A stretch of DNA of 20,000 nt. It comes from an uncultured virus (IMG/VR IMGVR_UViG_3300032293_002036) (Duplodnaviria; Heunggongvirae; Uroviricota; Caudoviricetes). Below, one piece after another: positions 2,654 through 13,216 of the stretch (position 1 is its first letter; every line of letters starts with the position of its first letter). Position numbers and translations under genes: made by a program. The notes beneath the pieces were generated by a model. The model worked only from the letters and a program-made list of their open reading frames with translations. It did no database searches and was not told where the DNA came from. The stretch lies in the IMG/VR virus record IMGVR_UViG_3300032293_002036. One strand, written 5' to 3'.

Positions 2654-3145
2654 ATGATTATGCACACCCCCATTGAGTTTGTCTTTACAGAGGAAGAGCG
2701 CCAACAAGCAATGGAGGAGGGGCAGAGGCGTCAGTCGGTCAATGAGAGCAAAGGGCTTCGTGGTCGCAACGGCGGAGCATGGAAAGGCAGCAAGGCCCTT
2801 GACATTCACATGTTGGGAGCGGCAGGTGAAATGGCGGTGGCTTCCTACCTCGGAATGAAGGACCATCTATACAAGGAAACGGAAGCTCGACGCGGCTCCG
2901 ACGATCTGCCGGGAATTGATGTGAAGACTCGCTCAAAAGCATCTTATGACTTGATTGTGCAAAAAGGAGAAGATAGCCAGCGAATCTTTGTTTTAGTGAC
3001 GATCGAAAGACAGAGGACGTTAATATGGGGCTGGTGTTACGGCCACGAGGCAATGCAAGAGCGGTTCTGGGCTGATCCTGCGCGAGGCAGGCCTGCCTAT
3101 TTTGTAGGGAAAGAGCACTTGCACCCCATGGAGGCCTTGAAATGA
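2654..3145 (+). CDS. Hypothetical phage protein, PD-(D/E)XK nuclease-like
   Basis: 163 aa. 'LGAAGEMAVASYLG...DDLPGIDVKT' matches the E...D...D-x-K pattern. Its stop overlaps the next ATG (ATGA). Confidence 0.6.
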   Translation: MIMHTPIEFVFTEEERQQAMEEGQRRQSVNESKGLRGRNGGAWKGSKALDIHMLGAAGEMAVASYLGMKDHLYKETEARRGSDDLPGIDVKTRSKASYDLIVQKGEDSQRIFVLVTIERQRTLIWGWCYGHEAMQERFWADPARGRPAYFVGKEHLHPMEALK

Positions 3146-3852
3146 CTAAGCAAGATCCAAATCGTTTTTATGTCTACGCATATTTAAGGTCTAAGGACTC
3201 GGAGCATGGGAAGAGACTAATGCCTTACTATATTGGCAAAGGTCACGGCAATAGGGCTTTTAGCACAAGCAGGCGAGGGGCACCAAGACCCAAGGATACA
3301 AATTTTGTTGTTTTCATCCAAGAGGGCTTGACGGAAGAAGATGCTTTTGCCTTGGAAATATATTGCATTAAACTGTACGGAAGGATTGACACTGGAACCG
3401 GCATCCTCCGCAACCTCACGGACGGCGGAGAAGGGGCGTCTGGCACCGTGACAAGTGAAGAGACGTGCCGCAAATTGTCAAAAGCACTAATTGGAAACCG
3501 GCGACGTTTTGGAAAGCCGCAAACGCAAGCAGCCAAGGACAAAGTATCGCGATCCCTTCTTGGCAACAAGCGCTCCCTTGGGAGATTGCATACGCAAGAA
3601 ACAAAAGACAAAATGTCGTTATCACGTACTGGAAAAAATCACACGCGGGAGTCAAGGGTGAAAATGTCTCAATCAAGACTCAAATATCTTTATGAGTTGA
3701 TCGACCCCGCAGGAGAGGTTTACATGACCGACAATCTTAAGGACTTCGCGAAGCAATATGGATTACATCAAAGCGCTCTGCAGCAAATGGTCAACGGCAA
3801 AAGAAATCACCATCAAGGTTGGACTGGGCAAATTGCCAAAGCATTAAGATGA
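3142..3852 (+). CDS. GIY-YIG homing endonuclease with NUMOD3-type repeats
   Basis: 'FYVYAYLR...PYYIGKG..NRA...EEDAFALE...NLTDGGEG' catalytic domain, followed by repeated H(T/S)xE(T/S)(K/R)xKMS-like motifs. AT-rich relative to neighbours. ATGA overlaps at both ends. Confidence 0.85.
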   Translation: MTKQDPNRFYVYAYLRSKDSEHGKRLMPYYIGKGHGNRAFSTSRRGAPRPKDTNFVVFIQEGLTEEDAFALEIYCIKLYGRIDTGTGILRNLTDGGEGASGTVTSEETCRKLSKALIGNRRRFGKPQTQAAKDKVSRSLLGNKRSLGRLHTQETKDKMSLSRTGKNHTRESRVKMSQSRLKYLYELIDPAGEVYMTDNLKDFAKQYGLHQSALQQMVNGKRNHHQGWTGQIAKALR

Positions 3853-5624: not shown

Positions 5625-5802
5625 GAATCCAATCCTTTAGCTCTGCCACATATTGTCGCAGCATTTGAGCCTTTTGAAGGTGCCAAGGGTCGCGATGGGA
5701 GAGGAATAGTTCGGTGTGCCCGTCAATAGCCTTGAGGAGATTGTGAATGGGCGCGTTCCAGCGTGATCGGACAACGGTGTCAAACGTCCTGCGATCGTTC
5801 AC
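5557..5802 (-). CDS. Hypothetical protein
   Basis: 81 aa ORF overlapping the phosphoesterase end on the same strand. Natural composition. Confidence 0.55.
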   Translation of the reverse strand: MNDRRTFDTVVRSRWNAPIHNLLKAIDGHTELFLSHRDPWHLQKAQMLRQYVAELKDWIHAEEAKCLADVGTGDGPKGRQE

Positions 5803-6319
5803 GGTCCTTGAAGAAGTCTTTGATGCACTCTAAAGGCACAGGACTAAAGTCATGCTGCTCTACGCAGCAGTTGAAATACTTCTGATCTGGCTGGCCGTTG
5901 GCGTCCTTCACTTCAAAGCAGTGCAAGTGGCCATGTGCATTGCCAGCGTACCTCCCAGACAAACTGTCAGGATGCACGGGAATATGAGTGAAGATCACGC
6001 CATCTCGATAGAAGGCGCCACGAATGTCCACAAAGTGATTCGCATAGTCCTGAAGCTTGTAAATGTCATGGTTGCCTTTAATCAGCACCTTGCTTCCATT
6101 GAAGCGATCTAAGAGGCTGAGCCCCGAGCGTGGAATGGCCACGTCGCCCAAGATGTAAAGCCGATCCTTTGGACTAACCACCTTGTTGAACCTCTCGATC
6201 ATCGTCTCATGCATCTCCTCAATGGAAGAGAAAGGACGCATGTGCGTGCCATCGGGGTTGACAAAAGAAAGCATCTTGGAGTGGCCAAGATGCAAGTCCG
6301 AGGTGACAAAAGCGGCCAA
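5780..6319 (-). CDS. Calcineurin-like metallophosphoesterase
   Basis: All family motifs are present: 'SDLHLGH', 'LGDV', 'GNHD', 'FTHIP', 'HGHLH'. TTG start. Confidence 0.9.
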   Translation of the reverse strand: MAAFVTSDLHLGHSKMLSFVNPDGTHMRPFSSIEEMHETMIERFNKVVSPKDRLYILGDVAIPRSGLSLLDRFNGSKVLIKGNHDIYKLQDYANHFVDIRGAFYRDGVIFTHIPVHPDSLSGRYAGNAHGHLHCFEVKDANGQPDQKYFNCCVEQHDFSPVPLECIKDFFKDRERSQDV

Positions 6320-6340
6320 CGGAACGAAAGCGGGGTTTTT

Positions 6341-6349
6341 ATTGTATCA
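6341..6349 (-). promoter_or_regulatory. Putative extended -10 promoter for the phosphoesterase
   Basis: TG-A-TACAAT on the minus strand, about 20 nt upstream of the start codon. Confidence 0.45.
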
Positions 6350-6352
6350 GAA

Positions 6353-6446
6353 GGGGAGAGGACGGAGTCGAACCGTCGTGACCCAGCGAGGGAATCGAAC
6401 CCAGCACAACAGATACATCCATTGTCGCCACCAAGACGTCTCTCCC
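6353..6446 (-). ncRNA. tRNA-like RNA (no canonical anticodon arm, two T-loops)
   Basis: Perfect 7-bp acceptor-like stem GGGAGAG/CUCUCCC stacked on a canonical T-arm GACGG-UUCGACU-CCGUC. D-like hairpin GUC-UUGGUGGC-GAC. Second T-loop hairpin GGG-UUCGAUU-CCC. No encoded CCA. Confidence 0.6.
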
Positions 6447-6514
6447 AGTGACCTCCAGGTTTGAGCATCGTTGAGAGGCTTAGGAGGTGTTGATAATGAC
6501 CCATGCGTAACTGA

Positions 6515-6690
6515 TGGGGGCAGTCAGAGGCCTGAGCGCTATCAGCCAGGAAGAGCACCCCGCACCGTCGGCGGACTCCAGAACTGGCAATGCCCGATGC
6601 CGAAGCAGTGCGGGTGCTGCAGGAGGCGATCAACCCTCCTGGCCTGCCAAGGCAGGTCTTAGAACGCAAGCCAGCAAGACTACTTCCCGA
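6515..6690 (-). ncRNA. manA-like structured RNA (boundaries approximate)
   Basis: Nested stems GCACCC-GCAC...GUGC-GGGGUGC (6617-6555) enclose GC-UUCG-GC, UCGG/CCGA, GGGC/GUCC and CCAG/CUGG, closed by GCCAGGA/UCCUGGC. The string CACUGC..GCAUCGGGCAUUGCCAG..CUGGAGUC..CGAC.GUGC..GGGUG...CUGAUAGCGC resembles the cyanophage manA RNA motif as I recall it; not searched. Confidence 0.5.
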
Positions 6691-6789
6691 CGACGCGGGT
6701 TCTTGAACGGGCTGCTCTCCATTGACAGAGCAATGGAGGGGATAAGGAAAGCACATGCATATTTAAGCTCAATTTAAAATTAAGCCGCT

Positions 6790-7011
6790 TGATACTTTCC
6801 CTCAATTCCAGTTGTTGCTGCGACACCGTCTACACACTGGCAAACTCTAACGGTGAAAGCGAGTCCCATCCTCGCTGGGCTTGTCAATGAGGCTAACAAG
6901 CGCTGCCTCTCCGTGTTGCCGGAGATACGCAGACGAAGGAGCAAACGTACCGTGCCAAGCCCGAGGTGAAATACATCCACCCGTAGGCCGGTAGGGACGT
7001 GTTCCCGTCGC
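6790..7011 (-). ncRNA. Unidentified multi-hairpin structured RNA
   Basis: Successive hairpins: GGGA/UCCC, GGUGGA/UUCACC, CUGC..UCUCCG-GCAACA-CGGAGA..GCAG, CUUGUUA-GCCUCAU-UGACAAG, AGCGAG-GAUGGGA-CUCGCU. No credible ORF. Promoter immediately upstream. Confidence 0.45.
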
Positions 7012-7016
7012 TTGAA

Positions 7017-7025
7017 ACTATAGCA
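7017..7025 (-). promoter_or_regulatory. Putative extended -10 promoter for the ncRNA cluster
   Basis: TG-C-TATAGT followed by TTCAAGCGAC. The same TTTCAAGCGAC string follows the putative DUF932 promoter (~18514-18524). Confidence 0.55.
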
Positions 7026-7045
7026 CCCTTGGGCAGCGAGCGGTA

Positions 7046-7786
7046 CTAGCGGGAGTACGCAGGCAGCGAGGTGTTCGGGCTCTCAAAGAACGAGATGGCC
7101 CTGCTGCTGCGCGTGGCGGCCATTTCAGGGGCCTTGCCAGTGAGGAACAGCGATTGCGATTGCCGCAGCCAGAAGTCCCTGTTGAGCCACTGATTGGACG
7201 ACTTGCCCAGATCATCAAACAGCCATGCAACAGTCGCGGCACGCAGTTTGTTCAGGCTTTGGCTTTCCTTCTCGCCCAGCTCCTTGCTCACCATGGCATT
7301 CACCACCGTATGCACCCGCTCGTCGCGGCTGATGTCCTGAGACACCGTGCGCATGCCCACGTCGCCTGTTTGACGGAAGAACGGCAGAGCCACGAAGAAC
7401 ACAGAACGCTCCATGATGCCAGCCTTCAGAATTGGGTGGGCAGGATGCTCGTTCCATGCCTTCAGAATGCTCATAACCTCCAGTTCTGCCTTTTCGCTCG
7501 TGCCGTGGGCGTCCACCACGAAATTGAGCGCAGCCAGATGGCGATCCTCGTCCTCCTGGTTGGAACGCAGGGTCTCGATGAGTCCAGGAGTGTTCGGCAG
7601 CTCTTGCTGCATGCCCTGCTCCAAAAGCTCTTTCACGGGGATCTCCAGGTGCCGAAGAGCCAGCGCCTTGAGCAGTGTGCTCTCAGCGCCTTCAGTTACA
7701 GCGCCCTTTGCCACTGGCACCGGCTGCCAGGACCGCTTCTTCTCCAGAACATTCAGATAGGGGCTCGGGCCAGCAATGGTGCTCAT
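7046..7786 (-). CDS. nrdB: Ribonucleotide reductase class I beta subunit (short ferritin-like, Cyano SP type)
   Basis: 246 aa from ATG 7786 (MSTIAGPSPY). Di-metal ligands 'HLEIPV', 'EDEDRH', 'IMERSVFF', 'SRDERVH'. C-terminal Tyr 'PAYSR'. Directly downstream of nrdA. Confidence 0.85.
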   Translation of the reverse strand: MSTIAGPSPYLNVLEKKRSWQPVPVAKGAVTEGAESTLLKALALRHLEIPVKELLEQGMQQELPNTPGLIETLRSNQEDEDRHLAALNFVVDAHGTSEKAELEVMSILKAWNEHPAHPILKAGIMERSVFFVALPFFRQTGDVGMRTVSQDISRDERVHTVVNAMVSKELGEKESQSLNKLRAATVAWLFDDLGKSSNQWLNRDFWLRQSQSLFLTGKAPEMAATRSSRAISFFESPNTSLPAYSR

Positions 7787-7826
7787 TTTTCGCTCAGTGC
7801 AATGTAAAAAAAGAGAAGAAAACAAA

Positions 7827-7844
7827 GGGCCGAAATTTCGGCCC
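7827..7844 (-). terminator. Hairpin between nrdA and nrdB (terminator-like or stabilising)
   Basis: GGGCCGA-AATT-TCGGCCC perfect stem, followed on the minus strand by TTTGTTTTC. Confidence 0.45.
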
Positions 7845-7871
7845 AAGAGGAAGAGACGATGGGAGGGAGTG

Positions 7872-9314
7872 TCATTCAGCGCAACTGGAGCAGAAGCCTG
7901 CATCCAGATTGCAAGACACACTTTCTTCTACTGGCTCGGCATCACCAAGCCCAAACATGCTTTGAAAATCGTCATCTAGAGCAGCGTAGGCATCATCCTT
8001 CCGTTGCATGTCAGGCATGACTTGCAGCGAGTAGTAGATGCTTGTCTGAGGAGATTCTAGCCATTTCCGCAAGAACTCCCGGTCATAAGTGACCATGTCG
8101 CCCCAAGTGTTCATGGAGTAGCCATGAAACAAATTGGTCGCTTGGAACAAACGAACAATACCATCAGCCACTCGTGAGAAGTTCTCCCAACCCACTTCTG
8201 CAGCGATCTCCACTTCGCCGTAGTCAAAGGTTTCGACGCCGAAGGTGCCGCTGTCGCGATCAACAGTGCGGCCAATGGGAGGGGCAATTTCAGGGGCTGT
8301 TGTGAAGCCCTTGGAATCGAGGTAGCGGTAGGAGCAGGAAGCAGTAGGAGCAATACAGAAAGCGCGTTCCATGCCGTATTTATTTGCAACTTGTTCAGCC
8401 GTGTAAATGGCATCATCAAGAGCGACAACAAGGTCGCCTGCTTTTGTATCGAGCCAGGAATCCCAGTCGCGACCACCAACTGTATAAGCTTCCAAGGCTT
8501 TGCCAAAGTCCTCGTATGTGACGCCATTGATTGCCAAGAAGTTGGCCAAACCAAGCAGTCCGAGGCCCACTTGTTTATCAATGGAAGGGGGGAGATATTC
8601 GCCAGTGTCCCCTACGCCTGTGTCTGGATGGAGCCGGCACAGTTGATGCATCGCCTTGGCGAACACATCCTCCAGCTCTTCAGGAGTGCAAGCGCCCAGA
8701 TTGACATGCTGAAGCAGGCAAGTGCCACGATGCTTTAGCCAGATTTCTTCGCAGACATTCGGCCAGATGCGCTCGCCATTCTTGTCATAGCGCTTTTTCG
8801 TGAGCCAGATGTCTCCAGAGGCAATGCCCTTGAGCAGCGCATCAATGAACTCTTCAGAGGCTTTTTTCAAGAACTGGTCGTCCACTGTGATGGAGCGCTT
8901 CACCCAAGGGAGAGACTGCCTGGAGGCTTGAATGAACTTCAGGGCGTCAGGGTGGTCGTAGTCGAGGTGCAGCGTGACGGCGCCATTACGAAACTGACCG
9001 CCGCGCCGCAGCACTTCATTAAGCTTGCTGTAGATGGTTGCAAAGCTTACTGGGCCGCTGGCTACCAAGCCTTTCCCGTTGTCCTGAGCCTCAGGACGAA
9101 GTTTGGAAAGATTGACGGCTGCTCCTGCAGCATTTCGCAACGCATGAGACACAAAACGCCACGATGCTTCAATGCCATCTGGCCCTTCCATTGAATCTTC
9201 CACCACGAAGGTGCAGCAACTGACAGGGAGACGGCTCTCAGGGCTATCCATCCAGTCTTGAATACGTCCCGTTCGAGCGATTTTAGAGCTTGTAGCTTTT
9301 TCCTTGAATGTCAT
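7872..9314 (-). CDS. nrdA: Ribonucleotide reductase class I alpha subunit (minimal, no ATP cone)
   Basis: 480 aa. 'PVSCC' (C225 equivalent), 'PNVCEEI' (N437/C439/E441), 'GTCLL' (C462), 'IAPTASCS', 'SIYYSL' (Y730/Y731, diagnostic of class I) and C-terminal 'CSSCAE'. Confidence 0.92.
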   Translation of the reverse strand: MTFKEKATSSKIARTGRIQDWMDSPESRLPVSCCTFVVEDSMEGPDGIEASWRFVSHALRNAAGAAVNLSKLRPEAQDNGKGLVASGPVSFATIYSKLNEVLRRGGQFRNGAVTLHLDYDHPDALKFIQASRQSLPWVKRSITVDDQFLKKASEEFIDALLKGIASGDIWLTKKRYDKNGERIWPNVCEEIWLKHRGTCLLQHVNLGACTPEELEDVFAKAMHQLCRLHPDTGVGDTGEYLPPSIDKQVGLGLLGLANFLAINGVTYEDFGKALEAYTVGGRDWDSWLDTKAGDLVVALDDAIYTAEQVANKYGMERAFCIAPTASCSYRYLDSKGFTTAPEIAPPIGRTVDRDSGTFGVETFDYGEVEIAAEVGWENFSRVADGIVRLFQATNLFHGYSMNTWGDMVTYDREFLRKWLESPQTSIYYSLQVMPDMQRKDDAYAALDDDFQSMFGLGDAEPVEESVSCNLDAGFCSSCAE

Positions 9315-9320
9315 GATCGT

Positions 9321-9830
9321 TTAGTGAACTGGATAAAGAGTTGTTAGTCGTTGATTGATGTAATCTAAGCGGGCCTTGGCAACCCTCGCCTCGGCCTCCT
9401 CGGCAGTCGCAAACCCTCCCAGCGCAATTGTTTTTCCTTGGCAGACTAAGCGAGCATAGTACCTGTTATCCACCTTGTGAACGCCTCGCCCGTATTGAGA
9501 TTTTCTTGCCTTGGTATTGTGCAATTGCCCTTCGTAGGTAGCGAGCCTCAGGTTTGCTGGATCATTATTGGACGGATTTCGGTCGATGTGATCAATGGTC
9601 ATTGAGCCTGGATCTCTTCGGTGAAAGATTGCCCAAACAACTCGATGACAGTGAAAACGACGACCGTAAAAATTTACGATCGAATGACCAGTGTCCTTGA
9701 CGCAACCAGCAATATCACCGGCTTTCATTTTCCAGTGATTCACTTTCCATCGAAGCCCCGTTGGGCTGGTCAGTGAGATAGAGAGCTTGGAACTTAATCT
9801 CTCCACATCTAAAGGCAGATGTGGCTTCAT
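9321..9830 (-). CDS. HNH homing endonuclease with a C-terminal AP2 domain
   Basis: 'HRVVWAIFH...TIDHIDRNPSNNDPANLR' HNH core. 'YGRGVHKVDNRYYARL...LGGFATAEEA' AP2 domain. Confidence 0.88.
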   Translation of the reverse strand: MKPHLPLDVERLSSKLSISLTSPTGLRWKVNHWKMKAGDIAGCVKDTGHSIVNFYGRRFHCHRVVWAIFHRRDPGSMTIDHIDRNPSNNDPANLRLATYEGQLHNTKARKSQYGRGVHKVDNRYYARLVCQGKTIALGGFATAEEAEARVAKARLDYINQRLTTLYPVH

Positions 9831-12622: not shown

Positions 12623-13216
12623 TTGGAAACAAAGAAATGTTCATCTTGTCAAGTCACGCTGTCGCTCGACAAATTTTACAAAGACTCATCCAGGCGCGAT
12701 GGCCTGACGAACAAGTGCAAACGATGCTCTTACGCAAGGCGTGTTAAATACGTAGAGAAAAACCCTGAGATTATCAAAGCAGAAAAACAAAGATACTACG
12801 CTCGAAACGCTGAAAAATTGCGCAAGTATTACTTTGACAACAGGGAGCGAATCTTGGCTACGGCAAAAGAAAGCCGAACCGGCAAGGAAGGATACATTAG
12901 AACCATGCTGAACTCGGCAAAAGCTCGCGCCAAGCGAAAGGGTTGGGATTTTGATTTAGAACTAAATGCGTTGTTAGGCATTGCCGGCGATTGCTGTCCA
13001 GTCGATGGGCTTCCTTTTGACTGGGATAGACAATTAGAAATTGATAACGCACTCCCATTGACCGTTCCATCTCTTGACAGAATTGATTCGTCTCGTGGCT
13101 ACACAAAAGACAACGTAATGATTATTGGCGACAAATGGAACAGATGGAAAAGCAACATGGATCTTGACGACTTGGAACAGCTAATTCAATATGTACGCAG
13201 TGTTACAAAAGGCTAA
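12623..13216 (+). CDS. HNH-type (beta-beta-alpha-Me) endonuclease with an N-terminal Zn ribbon
   Basis: 'KKCSSC...FYKD...DGLTNKCKRC' Zn ribbon. 'CPVDG...SLDRIDSSRGYTKDNVMII...NRWKSN' nuclease core. GGAG 5 nt before the TTG start. AT-rich. Confidence 0.82.
   Translation: METKKCSSCQVTLSLDKFYKDSSRRDGLTNKCKRCSYARRVKYVEKNPEIIKAEKQRYYARNAEKLRKYYFDNRERILATAKESRTGKEGYIRTMLNSAKARAKRKGWDFDLELNALLGIAGDCCPVDGLPFDWDRQLEIDNALPLTVPSLDRIDSSRGYTKDNVMIIGDKWNRWKSNMDLDDLEQLIQYVRSVTKG

Follow-up and report, generated by a model that had tools for sequence, protein, structure and literature searches.

An orphan abiF RNA hairpin beside a tRNA-like element in a modular RNA locus of an uncultured tailed phage: a candidate antitoxin decoy

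The abiF-motif RNA RCd22 has been reported to bind the AbiF (Abi_2) toxin and to neutralise it in cis as well as in trans, in the manner of a type III antitoxin (PMC12373285). The structure of PbAbiF-ncRNA, to which the same antitoxin role is assigned, is described in a review that also presents AbiF as a proposed ancestor of Cas13 (PMC12737573). Phage PhiTE carries a ToxI mimic, pseudo-ToxI, which defeats abortive infection by ToxIN (PMC3475682), and a hairpin of phage sk1 protects against the lactococcal AbiF (PMC12184496, PMC13064643). An abiF RNA has also been reported in cyanophage S-CREM1, in a cluster with wcaG and manA RNAs between tRNA genes; that report leaves its function open (PMC9964418), as does a 2025 review (PMC12197685). 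The subject of the present analysis is a stretch of about 670 nt (7025-6354, minus strand) in 20 kb of DNA from an uncultured tailed phage (IMG/VR record IMGVR_UViG_3300032293_002036), in which an abiF RNA hairpin stands directly before a tRNA-like element. The whole 20 kb stretch is referred to as the window, and related loci and contigs are cited by L numbers.

The unit is read here as an orphan antitoxin decoy against the AbiF of the host, which would be released by tRNA-processing enzymes; a probability of about one half is given to this reading. Two features carry it:

6451 to 6487, minus strand: abiF RNA motif (Rfam RF03085; other names RCd22 and AbiFr), covered over its full length (37/37) with 53.7 bits, E 1.1e-7, where the gathering score is 37
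6354 to 6446, minus strand: tRNA-like element of 93 nt, located by an in-house scan and starting 4 nt (CACU) past the abiF hairpin

A cmscan search against Rfam, as proposed in the original prediction, returned the abiF RNA as the sole gathering-level match in the whole 20 kb. The match at 6487-6451 is the ACCUCC...GGAGGU element which that prediction had picked out by eye, and all of the other elements it listed were also found on the minus strand where it had placed them. The outer 6-bp stem, the inner 3-bp stem, the conserved loop CUCUCAACGAU and the 3′ bulge CAAA are all present in the cmscan alignment, with AACA on the 5′ flank and CACU on the 3′ flank. The fold of the single sequence agrees with this structure (z = -2.1). 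The 22-nt core equals the family consensus and recurs unchanged in at least 119 IMG/VR stretches, and a segment of 48 nt here matches Synechococcus phage S-SZBM1 at 96% identity.

No Abi_2 gene was found among the open reading frames (ORFs) of the window with Pfam and PADLOC. Five records were searched whole, namely the complete S-CREM1, S-SZBM1 and S-SRM01, one IMG/VR genome rated 100% complete and L125 (a 34%-complete IMG/VR contig), and none contained Abi_2. The two longest ORFs of at least 130 aa were also scanned in 77 of the 80 loci L004-L083 around the motif (142 ORFs), and Abi_2 was present in four (L015, L042, L063 and L082). As Abi_2 is rare in these loci and absent from the whole records, most viral abiF copies are orphans. 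Judged by sequence and predicted structure, the window hairpin is a member of the abiF family and an orphan copy, as it does not occupy the position 5′ of an abiF gene.

The 37-nt hairpin is like RCd22 in that it matches the family model end to end and has the consensus loop. RCd22, however, has two motifs, followed by a terminator and the toxin gene, whereas the window has one motif, no abiF gene, an RNA of about 660 nt and a tRNA mimic after the hairpin. The likeness to pseudo-ToxI is of another kind: both are phage copies of a host-type type III antitoxin RNA without the toxin, and the mode of action proposed is the same. The toxin opposed by pseudo-ToxI is ToxN, which cuts tandem repeats; in the window the toxin would be AbiF, the RNA is a single hairpin and its function is assigned by analogy.

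The tRNA-like element is built from a perfect 7-bp acceptor stem (GGGAGAG/CUCUCCC), a small hairpin I, an 8-bp hairpin II closed by a tetraloop, one additional T-arm-like hairpin and a T arm of canonical form, GACGG-UUCGACU-CCGUC. As in a tRNA, the acceptor stem is stacked on a T stem of 5 bp whose loop is of the UUCRA type; CCA is not encoded. The two T-arm copies are 86% identical in a repeat search. ARAGORN called no tRNA in the element, the Rfam tRNA model (RF00005) gave no match at E<=10 and tRNA-Sec (RF01852) reached 20.5 bits against 47. Where a tRNA has its 7-nt anticodon loop, the element has a stem of 8 bp capped by four nucleotides that are not the same from one natural variant to the next. 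Across DNA contigs of four other metagenome runs, substitutions in hairpins I and II leave the pairing intact or strengthen it (U.G to C-G, G.U to A-U) while the letters of the tetraloop are variable, and for this reason the element is regarded as a maintained, non-decoding tRNA mimic.

The association of the abiF hairpin with such elements recurs in other viruses. The exact core occurs in 105 distinct contexts, 102 of which have enough downstream DNA to be judged. An ARAGORN tRNA, with many different anticodons, lies within 12 nt downstream on the same strand in 22 of the 102, and a further 21, the window among them, have an acceptor-plus-T-arm element uncalled by ARAGORN. A tRNA or tRNA-like element thus begins 3-8 nt downstream of the motif in 43 of the 102. 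The detector fires at 38/100 real places, compared with 0/96 on the opposite strand and 5/213 at offsets of 400-800 nt. The acceptor stems behind abiF differ widely (GGGAGAG, AGCACAG, CACCCAG, CGUCUGU and others) and all are paired. In isolated phages the motif stands 4 nt before tRNA-Gly (S-CREM1), tRNA-Ala (S-SZBM1) and tRNA-Arg (S-SRM01). The S-CREM1 cluster is the same in this respect, with its abiF RNA carrying AACA...CACU flanks 4 nt before a tRNA-type element; the window differs from it in lacking a true tRNA, manA and wcaG, and in having further modules (D1, M6, M7 and others, below) outside Rfam. A separate observation concerns a 69-nt element about 4 nt after abiF in L049, L117/L125, L034, L092 and L094. 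It is called tRNA-Ile(GAU) by ARAGORN, has no Rfam tRNA match at E<=1 and looks like another conserved tRNA mimic rather than a working tRNA.

An acceptor/T-arm minihelix is a sufficient substrate for RNase P. In the MALAT1-mascRNA system the 3′ end of a long RNA is formed through tRNA-like processing by RNase P, and the tRNA cluster of phage T4 yields stable small RNAs. By likeness to these, a tRNA-shaped element directly behind another RNA could let RNase P set the 3′ end of that RNA. Processing via the tRNA mimic, one of the options raised in the original prediction, is judged a plausible way to cut the unit.

The proposed mechanism begins with transcription of 7025-6354 (minus strand) as a single phage non-coding unit from an extended -10 element at 7025-7017. 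The order of the putative transcript would be the extended -10, a chain of structured modules, the orphan abiF hairpin and the tRNA-like element. The cut by host RNase P would fall directly before G6446, where the tRNA-like element has its 5′ end, and so between 6447 and 6446, freeing an upstream RNA with the abiF hairpin and a 4-nt CACU tail at its 3′ end. The freed hairpin may then bind the AbiF (Abi_2) toxin of the host, a HEPN RNase. AbiF would stay inhibited after infection had halted synthesis of the host's own short-lived antitoxin RNA, so that abortive infection is blocked, to the presumed benefit of the phage. In comparison with pseudo-ToxI, release by tRNA-processing enzymes would be a new feature of the window unit, if true.

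An RNA decoy against a host RNase had already been put forward in the original prediction, and this is retained as the best current reading. The target it named, an anticodon nuclease, is given up: the tRNA-like element cannot serve as a decoy for such an enzyme because an 8-bp stem and variable tetraloop replace the anticodon loop. The identifiable decoy is instead the abiF antitoxin hairpin, with the HEPN RNase AbiF as its partner, an assignment held with even confidence.

The host to be considered is suggested by several indirect signs. Similarity of abiF and of the upstream module D1 to Synechococcus phages, the glutamine-II riboswitches of relatives and the labels of the sequencing runs point to (freshwater) picocyanobacteria. 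Freshwater or lake is the prevailing label of the DNA runs that contain part of the stretch; soil, marine and oil-sands labels also occur. The group examined was the order of a Synechococcus metagenome-assembled genome (MAG; reached through L283), with 301 genomes. A strong Abi_2 gene is present in 12 of these, and in 7 of 10 host-order loci an abiF-like hairpin lies just upstream of Abi_2, with AACA...CACU flanks as in the phage copies. AbiF and a related cognate RNA therefore occur in the candidate host group. The picocyanobacterial abiF-like RNAs (L285-L290, L293) have a 15-nt apical hairpin instead of CAACGAU, and as they score under the Rfam gathering score of 37 this variant is missed by standard annotation.

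A number of points weigh against the decoy reading. RCd22 requires two abiF motifs (PMC12373285) and the window has one. The Abi_2 carriers are only 4% of the sampled candidate-host genomes. Their cognate RNAs have the expanded apical hairpin and reach 30.7-33.6 bits, below the cutoff of 37, while the consensus-type motif of the phages was found in 0 of 151 host-order genomes; on these two grounds the phage copy is not a simple copy of the host cognate RNAs. The cyanobacterial assignment itself rests on the abiF/D1 similarity to Synechococcus phages and the glutamine-II riboswitches of relatives. No RNA run containing the stretch was found, and the runs compared gave DNA contigs. In 59 of the 102 viral contexts neither a tRNA nor a tRNA-like element stands behind the motif. 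Finally, a decoy of about 40 nt would suffice, which leaves some 440 nt of conserved modules over.

The 530 nt upstream of the hairpin form a chain of modules that recur in varied combinations in other viral contigs:

6932 to 7013, minus strand: D1-like 5′ stem-loop domain; the conserved leader hairpin of which it is a divergent copy ends in GUUUGCUCCUUCGUC
6857 to 6931, minus strand: M3 and M4, three local hairpins (fold z = -3.61, 0/200 shuffles as good)
6749 to 6856, minus strand: M5, AT-rich hairpin region (around 6790-6750; fold z = -1.4)
6662 to 6748, minus strand: M6, hairpin CUCCAUU-GCUCUGUC-AAUGGAG (6738-6717), then a helix GCAGCC...CUGGCUUGCG around a variable hairpin
6617 to 6661, minus strand: M7, adjacent hairpins CCUGC/GCAGG and CAGGAGG/CCUCCUG after AAGACC
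6488 to 6616, minus strand: M8, CCCGCACUGCUUCGGCAUCGGGC hairpin, a second GCCAG-UUC...CUGGCU sub-module (resting on one blastn match) and a 3′ hairpin ending AACA (fold z -0.75)

Covariation among homologues was looked for, in line with the original prediction, and compensatory changes were found across relatives in M6 and M7. The M6 hairpin is the CUCCAUU/AAUGGAG pairing already noted in that prediction. In 11 distinct versions all seven pairs are kept (7/7), double compensatory changes occur at 5 of the 7 positions and the loop GCUCUGUC is conserved; the module is 84% identical over 82 nt to L037. With a covariance model (R1), M7 was detected in 21 of 100 sources, and in each of them it stood upstream of abiF. 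Its alignment, which is biased toward structure by having been fitted to R1, has 98.2% of cells paired, with 6/12 pairs compensatory and 0/500 shuffles reaching the score; slid controls are 36-53% paired. Across an alignment of 12 distinct copies, D1 retains its basal helix; a single compensatory change is seen at each of three pairs, and the apical hairpin differs in sequence and length. D1 stands directly before abiF in S-SZBM1 and directly before a tRNA in S-SRM01. The whole unit in S-SZBM1 and L049-type contigs is D1, abiF and a tRNA or tRNA-like element. Elsewhere, identity to part of L006 is 94% over 6903-6857, identity to L047 is 80% over 6813-6753 and, in M8, identity to the distal M6 sub-module of L072 is 81% over 6587-6546. 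M5 is the weakest-supported module.

The full 663 nt fold with z = -2.8 (0/20 shuffles equal), and single modules range from -0.75 to -3.6. With the abiF match, the overall and module folds and the compensatory changes, the RNA pattern exceeds chance, and the upstream hairpins are real covarying structured modules. D1, M6 and M7 match no Rfam family at E<=1. The original prediction had also seen a manA-like junction here, and this is not upheld: manA (RF01745), wcaG, GOLLD, ROOL, RNase P and tmRNA give no match at E<=10 over 6250-7150, and manA has no match at gathering score in 11 related loci. An RNase P-like reading of M7 (AAGUCC, then hairpins) was rejected on the same RNase P result. A long-range AAGCGA/UCGCUU helix closing the 5′ 154 nt was dropped, as UCGCU pairs locally and the local hairpin covaries with L006. 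Tandem duplication within the RNA was likewise set aside, with an ungapped repeat search showing the two T-arm copies only. A metagenome scan for a 15-nt D1 motif gave at least 119 stretches, none with an abiF core nearby among the matches listed, and these are taken as chance matches. Two more conserved modules, absent from the window, lie between M7 and abiF in L009, L117, L030, L031, L044, L046 and L037. One has GGUCCAC...GAGCCCUCGACCCAUUUGGCAAGCUCGACGGAC and the other GGUUCCACCGACAUGGAC...CUCUGAAACGGACC; neither matches Rfam.

The length and order of the chain could instead mean that it is a single large ornate RNA with its own function, similar to GOLLD or ROOL, in which the abiF hairpin is one module and the tRNA-like end serves 3′-end formation. 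About 660 nt that lack an internal terminator follow a single promoter-like site. Conserved loops and covarying stems, outside any Rfam family, are seen in at least three families of modules, and the order D1, M6, M7, variable part, abiF, tRNA-like element is conserved in L009/L124, L046, L104, L117/L125 and the window. GOLLD and ROOL (RF01998, RF03087) are likewise large, structured, phage-associated RNAs next to tRNAs and possibly co-transcribed with them (PMC5737381). However, the window has no match to either model at E<=10 and its modules are dispensable cassettes, so the likeness is in context only. The modules are also separable: D1 occurs before a tRNA without abiF between them (S-SRM01), D1 and abiF alone in L049/S-SZBM1, and M7 and abiF alone in L004/L035. 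Close relatives exist without M7, M8 or the 5′ 148 nt, so no fixed core appears to be needed beyond abiF and the tRNA-like element. A single ornate RNA is considered rather unlikely.

The dispensability of the modules is seen in a series of natural variants. The window is the longest version seen, and its nearest relative (L017/L123) is 97.4% identical over 760 nt. M7 (6614-6661) is precisely missing from contigs of runs X2 and X9. M8 (6488-6619) is missing from one contig of run X8, and also from L004, L006, L035, L038 and L078, where M7 abuts abiF. In contigs of three runs from three studies, 6860-7007 is swapped for 32 other bases. The missing modules have sharp borders, and related phages thus gain and lose upstream modules as cassettes.

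Such a pattern would also arise if the locus were the remains of a phage tRNA array, its tRNAs decayed into mimics and its small structured modules reshuffled by recombination, in a genome where homing endonucleases abound, as neutral or selfish cassettes of no benefit to the phage. The sharply bordered presence and absence in natural relatives, the shuffling of module order between contigs, the three homing-type endonuclease genes in the window and the many post-abiF elements that are aberrant tRNAs unscored by the Rfam tRNA model all agree with this. Neutral decay does not sit well, however, with compensatory changes that keep stems while loops are conserved across divergent contigs, with a 22-nt core that is unchanged in all those viral stretches, or with a promoter-like element conserved in position. 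On balance this explanation is improbable.

Within the decoy reading the upstream modules are the weakest part of the account. They may be stabilising or scaffolding parts, or further decoys. A wider, tentative proposal, regarded as unlikely as it stands, would place the unit in a class of modular phage 'cassette RNAs' not described before, in which transcripts run from a promoter to a tRNA mimic and are made of interchangeable modules (D1, M6, M7 and others seen in relatives). Each module would inhibit, or act as a decoy for, its own RNA-binding defence protein of the host and would be freed by tRNA-processing enzymes, and the abiF hairpin would be the module whose target is known. In a narrower version D1 would be a second AbiF-binding hairpin, mirroring the two-motif RCd22, as it shares AAGCCUCU with abiF and abuts it in minimal units. 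The idea that every module mimics a host RNA has no support yet, with chance-level matches in 151-301 genomes of the candidate-host order. Model R1 for M7 gave 29 bits or less in 151 genomes, with the eight best in coding-like GC-rich DNA; M6 gave 5 matches in 4/301 genomes against 6 for the reversed control; and D1 gave 10 matches in 9/301 genomes against 5 for the control, with five inspected and lacking a partner strand.

The two ends of the unit are marked by promoter-like elements:

7017 to 7025, minus strand: promoter-like extended -10, TGCTATAGT, immediately past the stop codon of nrdB
6341 to 6349, minus strand: a second element like an extended -10, TGAUACAAU, lying after the tRNA-like element and before the start of the phosphoesterase

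In related loci with enough upstream DNA, TGnTAnnnT stands 3-4 nt ahead of the conserved CAAGCGAC start of the 5′ domain. A strict sigma-70 scan for -35/-10 pairs found no promoter, the 7017-7025 element included, and the element is called promoter-like from its conserved position in relatives. With that qualification, the original prediction of a promoter-headed non-coding chain of structured RNA domains ending in a tRNA mimic is borne out. For the second element, TGCTACATT occupies the equivalent place in L004, L006 and L078. Just before the promoter-like element of L004 (~1010-1045) there is another tRNA-like 3′ part, GAGGG-UUCGAUU-CCCUC CUGGGCU, which resembles the extra T-arm-like hairpin of the window's tRNA-like element.

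The unit lies between two genes and is overlapped by ORFs without credible coding function:

7046 to 7921, minus strand: nrdB, ribonucleotide reductase beta subunit (upstream gene; phrog_6799 E 1.2e-102)
5780 to 6319, minus strand: small metallophosphoesterase (downstream gene; Pfam Metallophos E 1.8e-4, phrog_547 E 2.5e-45, PDB 1xm7 E 8e-4)
6199 to 6756, minus strand: overlapping ORF of 185 aa
6780 to 6980, minus strand: overlapping ORF of 66 aa
6514 to 6777, plus strand: overlapping ORF

The view that the stretch encodes a protein has in its favour that these frames are open, the two on the minus strand (6199..6756 and 6780..6980) being the candidates. They match no family in Pfam, PHROG or PADLOC, and the 185-aa frame crosses both abiF hairpin and tRNA-like element and then enters the phosphoesterase gene, in a frame other than that of the gene. 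Natural relatives have insertions of one nucleotide (6737, 6822) and module indels whose lengths are not divisible by three, by which the frames would be broken. The absence of a credible gene, as first predicted, is thereby confirmed, and a coding function is very improbable.

A further alternative is that the RNA is a cis-acting leader controlling the downstream phosphoesterase, as the bacterial abiF RNA in the abiF 5′ untranslated region lowers abiF expression; RCd22 is reported to act in cis on abiF transcription (PMC12373285). In agreement with this, the RNA is directly upstream of the metallophosphoesterase in the window, L123-L125 and L127, and Metallophos ORFs lie beside the motif in L025, L030, L038, L046 and L069. 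The arrangement is not general, however. The abiF core is upstream in just 4 of 26 phosphoesterase relatives, T4-like cyanophages carry the motif inside tRNA arrays with unrelated neighbours, and the second, conserved -10-like element separates the tRNA-like element from the phosphoesterase gene. Control in cis is accordingly quite unlikely. The same co-occurrence count and intervening element speak against the link first suggested between the RNA and end-healing by the phosphoesterase, which is a generic small metallophosphoesterase and scores 28 bits against 150 with the PdeM-like model. Overall, the interpretation offered by the original prediction is partly supported. As a side observation, a permuted tmRNA gene (L132 2946-3372, 137 bits) stands beside the phosphoesterase of a more distant relative, and glutamine-II riboswitch aptamers lie near the phosphoesterase gene in L124 (3884-3937), L125 (4105-4158), L128/L129 (4014-4067) and L046 (185-239).

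Pfam and PHROG searches identify in the window a portal gene, the large terminase, genes for ribonucleotide reductase and three endonucleases of homing type. No close relatives were found among 50,697 GenBank phage records; the shared DNA is one 48-nt piece inside the RNA unit. In contrast to the S-CREM1 type, the window phage is non-T4-like. The endonuclease genes are an HNH gene (9321-9830, minus strand), a NUMOD3/I-HmuI-like gene (3142-3852, plus strand) just before the terminase, and an endonuclease VII/HNH-like gene (12623-13216, plus strand). The HNH gene is directly upstream of the large ribonucleotide reductase ORF (480 aa; both lie within 7872-9830, minus strand), in which only the barrel domain is matched, from the first residue, without the N-terminal domain. 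A split of the large ribonucleotide reductase gene, or its interruption by a homing element, is possible.

Published work already covers the abiF motif, its role as an antitoxin and one occurrence in a cyanophage. In the literature searched, which did not extend to the Cell 2025 AbiF paper or the Weinberg 2017 supplement with its abiF entry, no report was found of widespread orphan viral abiF copies, of their fusion to tRNAs or tRNA mimics, of flanks common to phage and picocyanobacterial cognates, or of abiF heading modular RNAs built from non-Rfam motifs. The locus itself yields several covarying RNA motifs without an Rfam match, together with a natural series of cassette gain and loss variants.

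AbiF is a recently recognised type III toxin-antitoxin defence and a proposed ancestor of Cas13. Natural phage escape from it is almost unknown, with one lactococcal hairpin as the single example in the texts consulted. If the decoy reading is true, orphan copies of the AbiF antitoxin would be a widespread counter-defence, present in at least 119 viral contigs and in isolated cyanophages. It would also represent a new form of delivery, in which an antitoxin is fused to tRNAs or their mimics and matured by the tRNA enzymes of the host. An abiF hairpin with a tRNA 4 nt downstream would then provide a search signature for RNA anti-defence elements.

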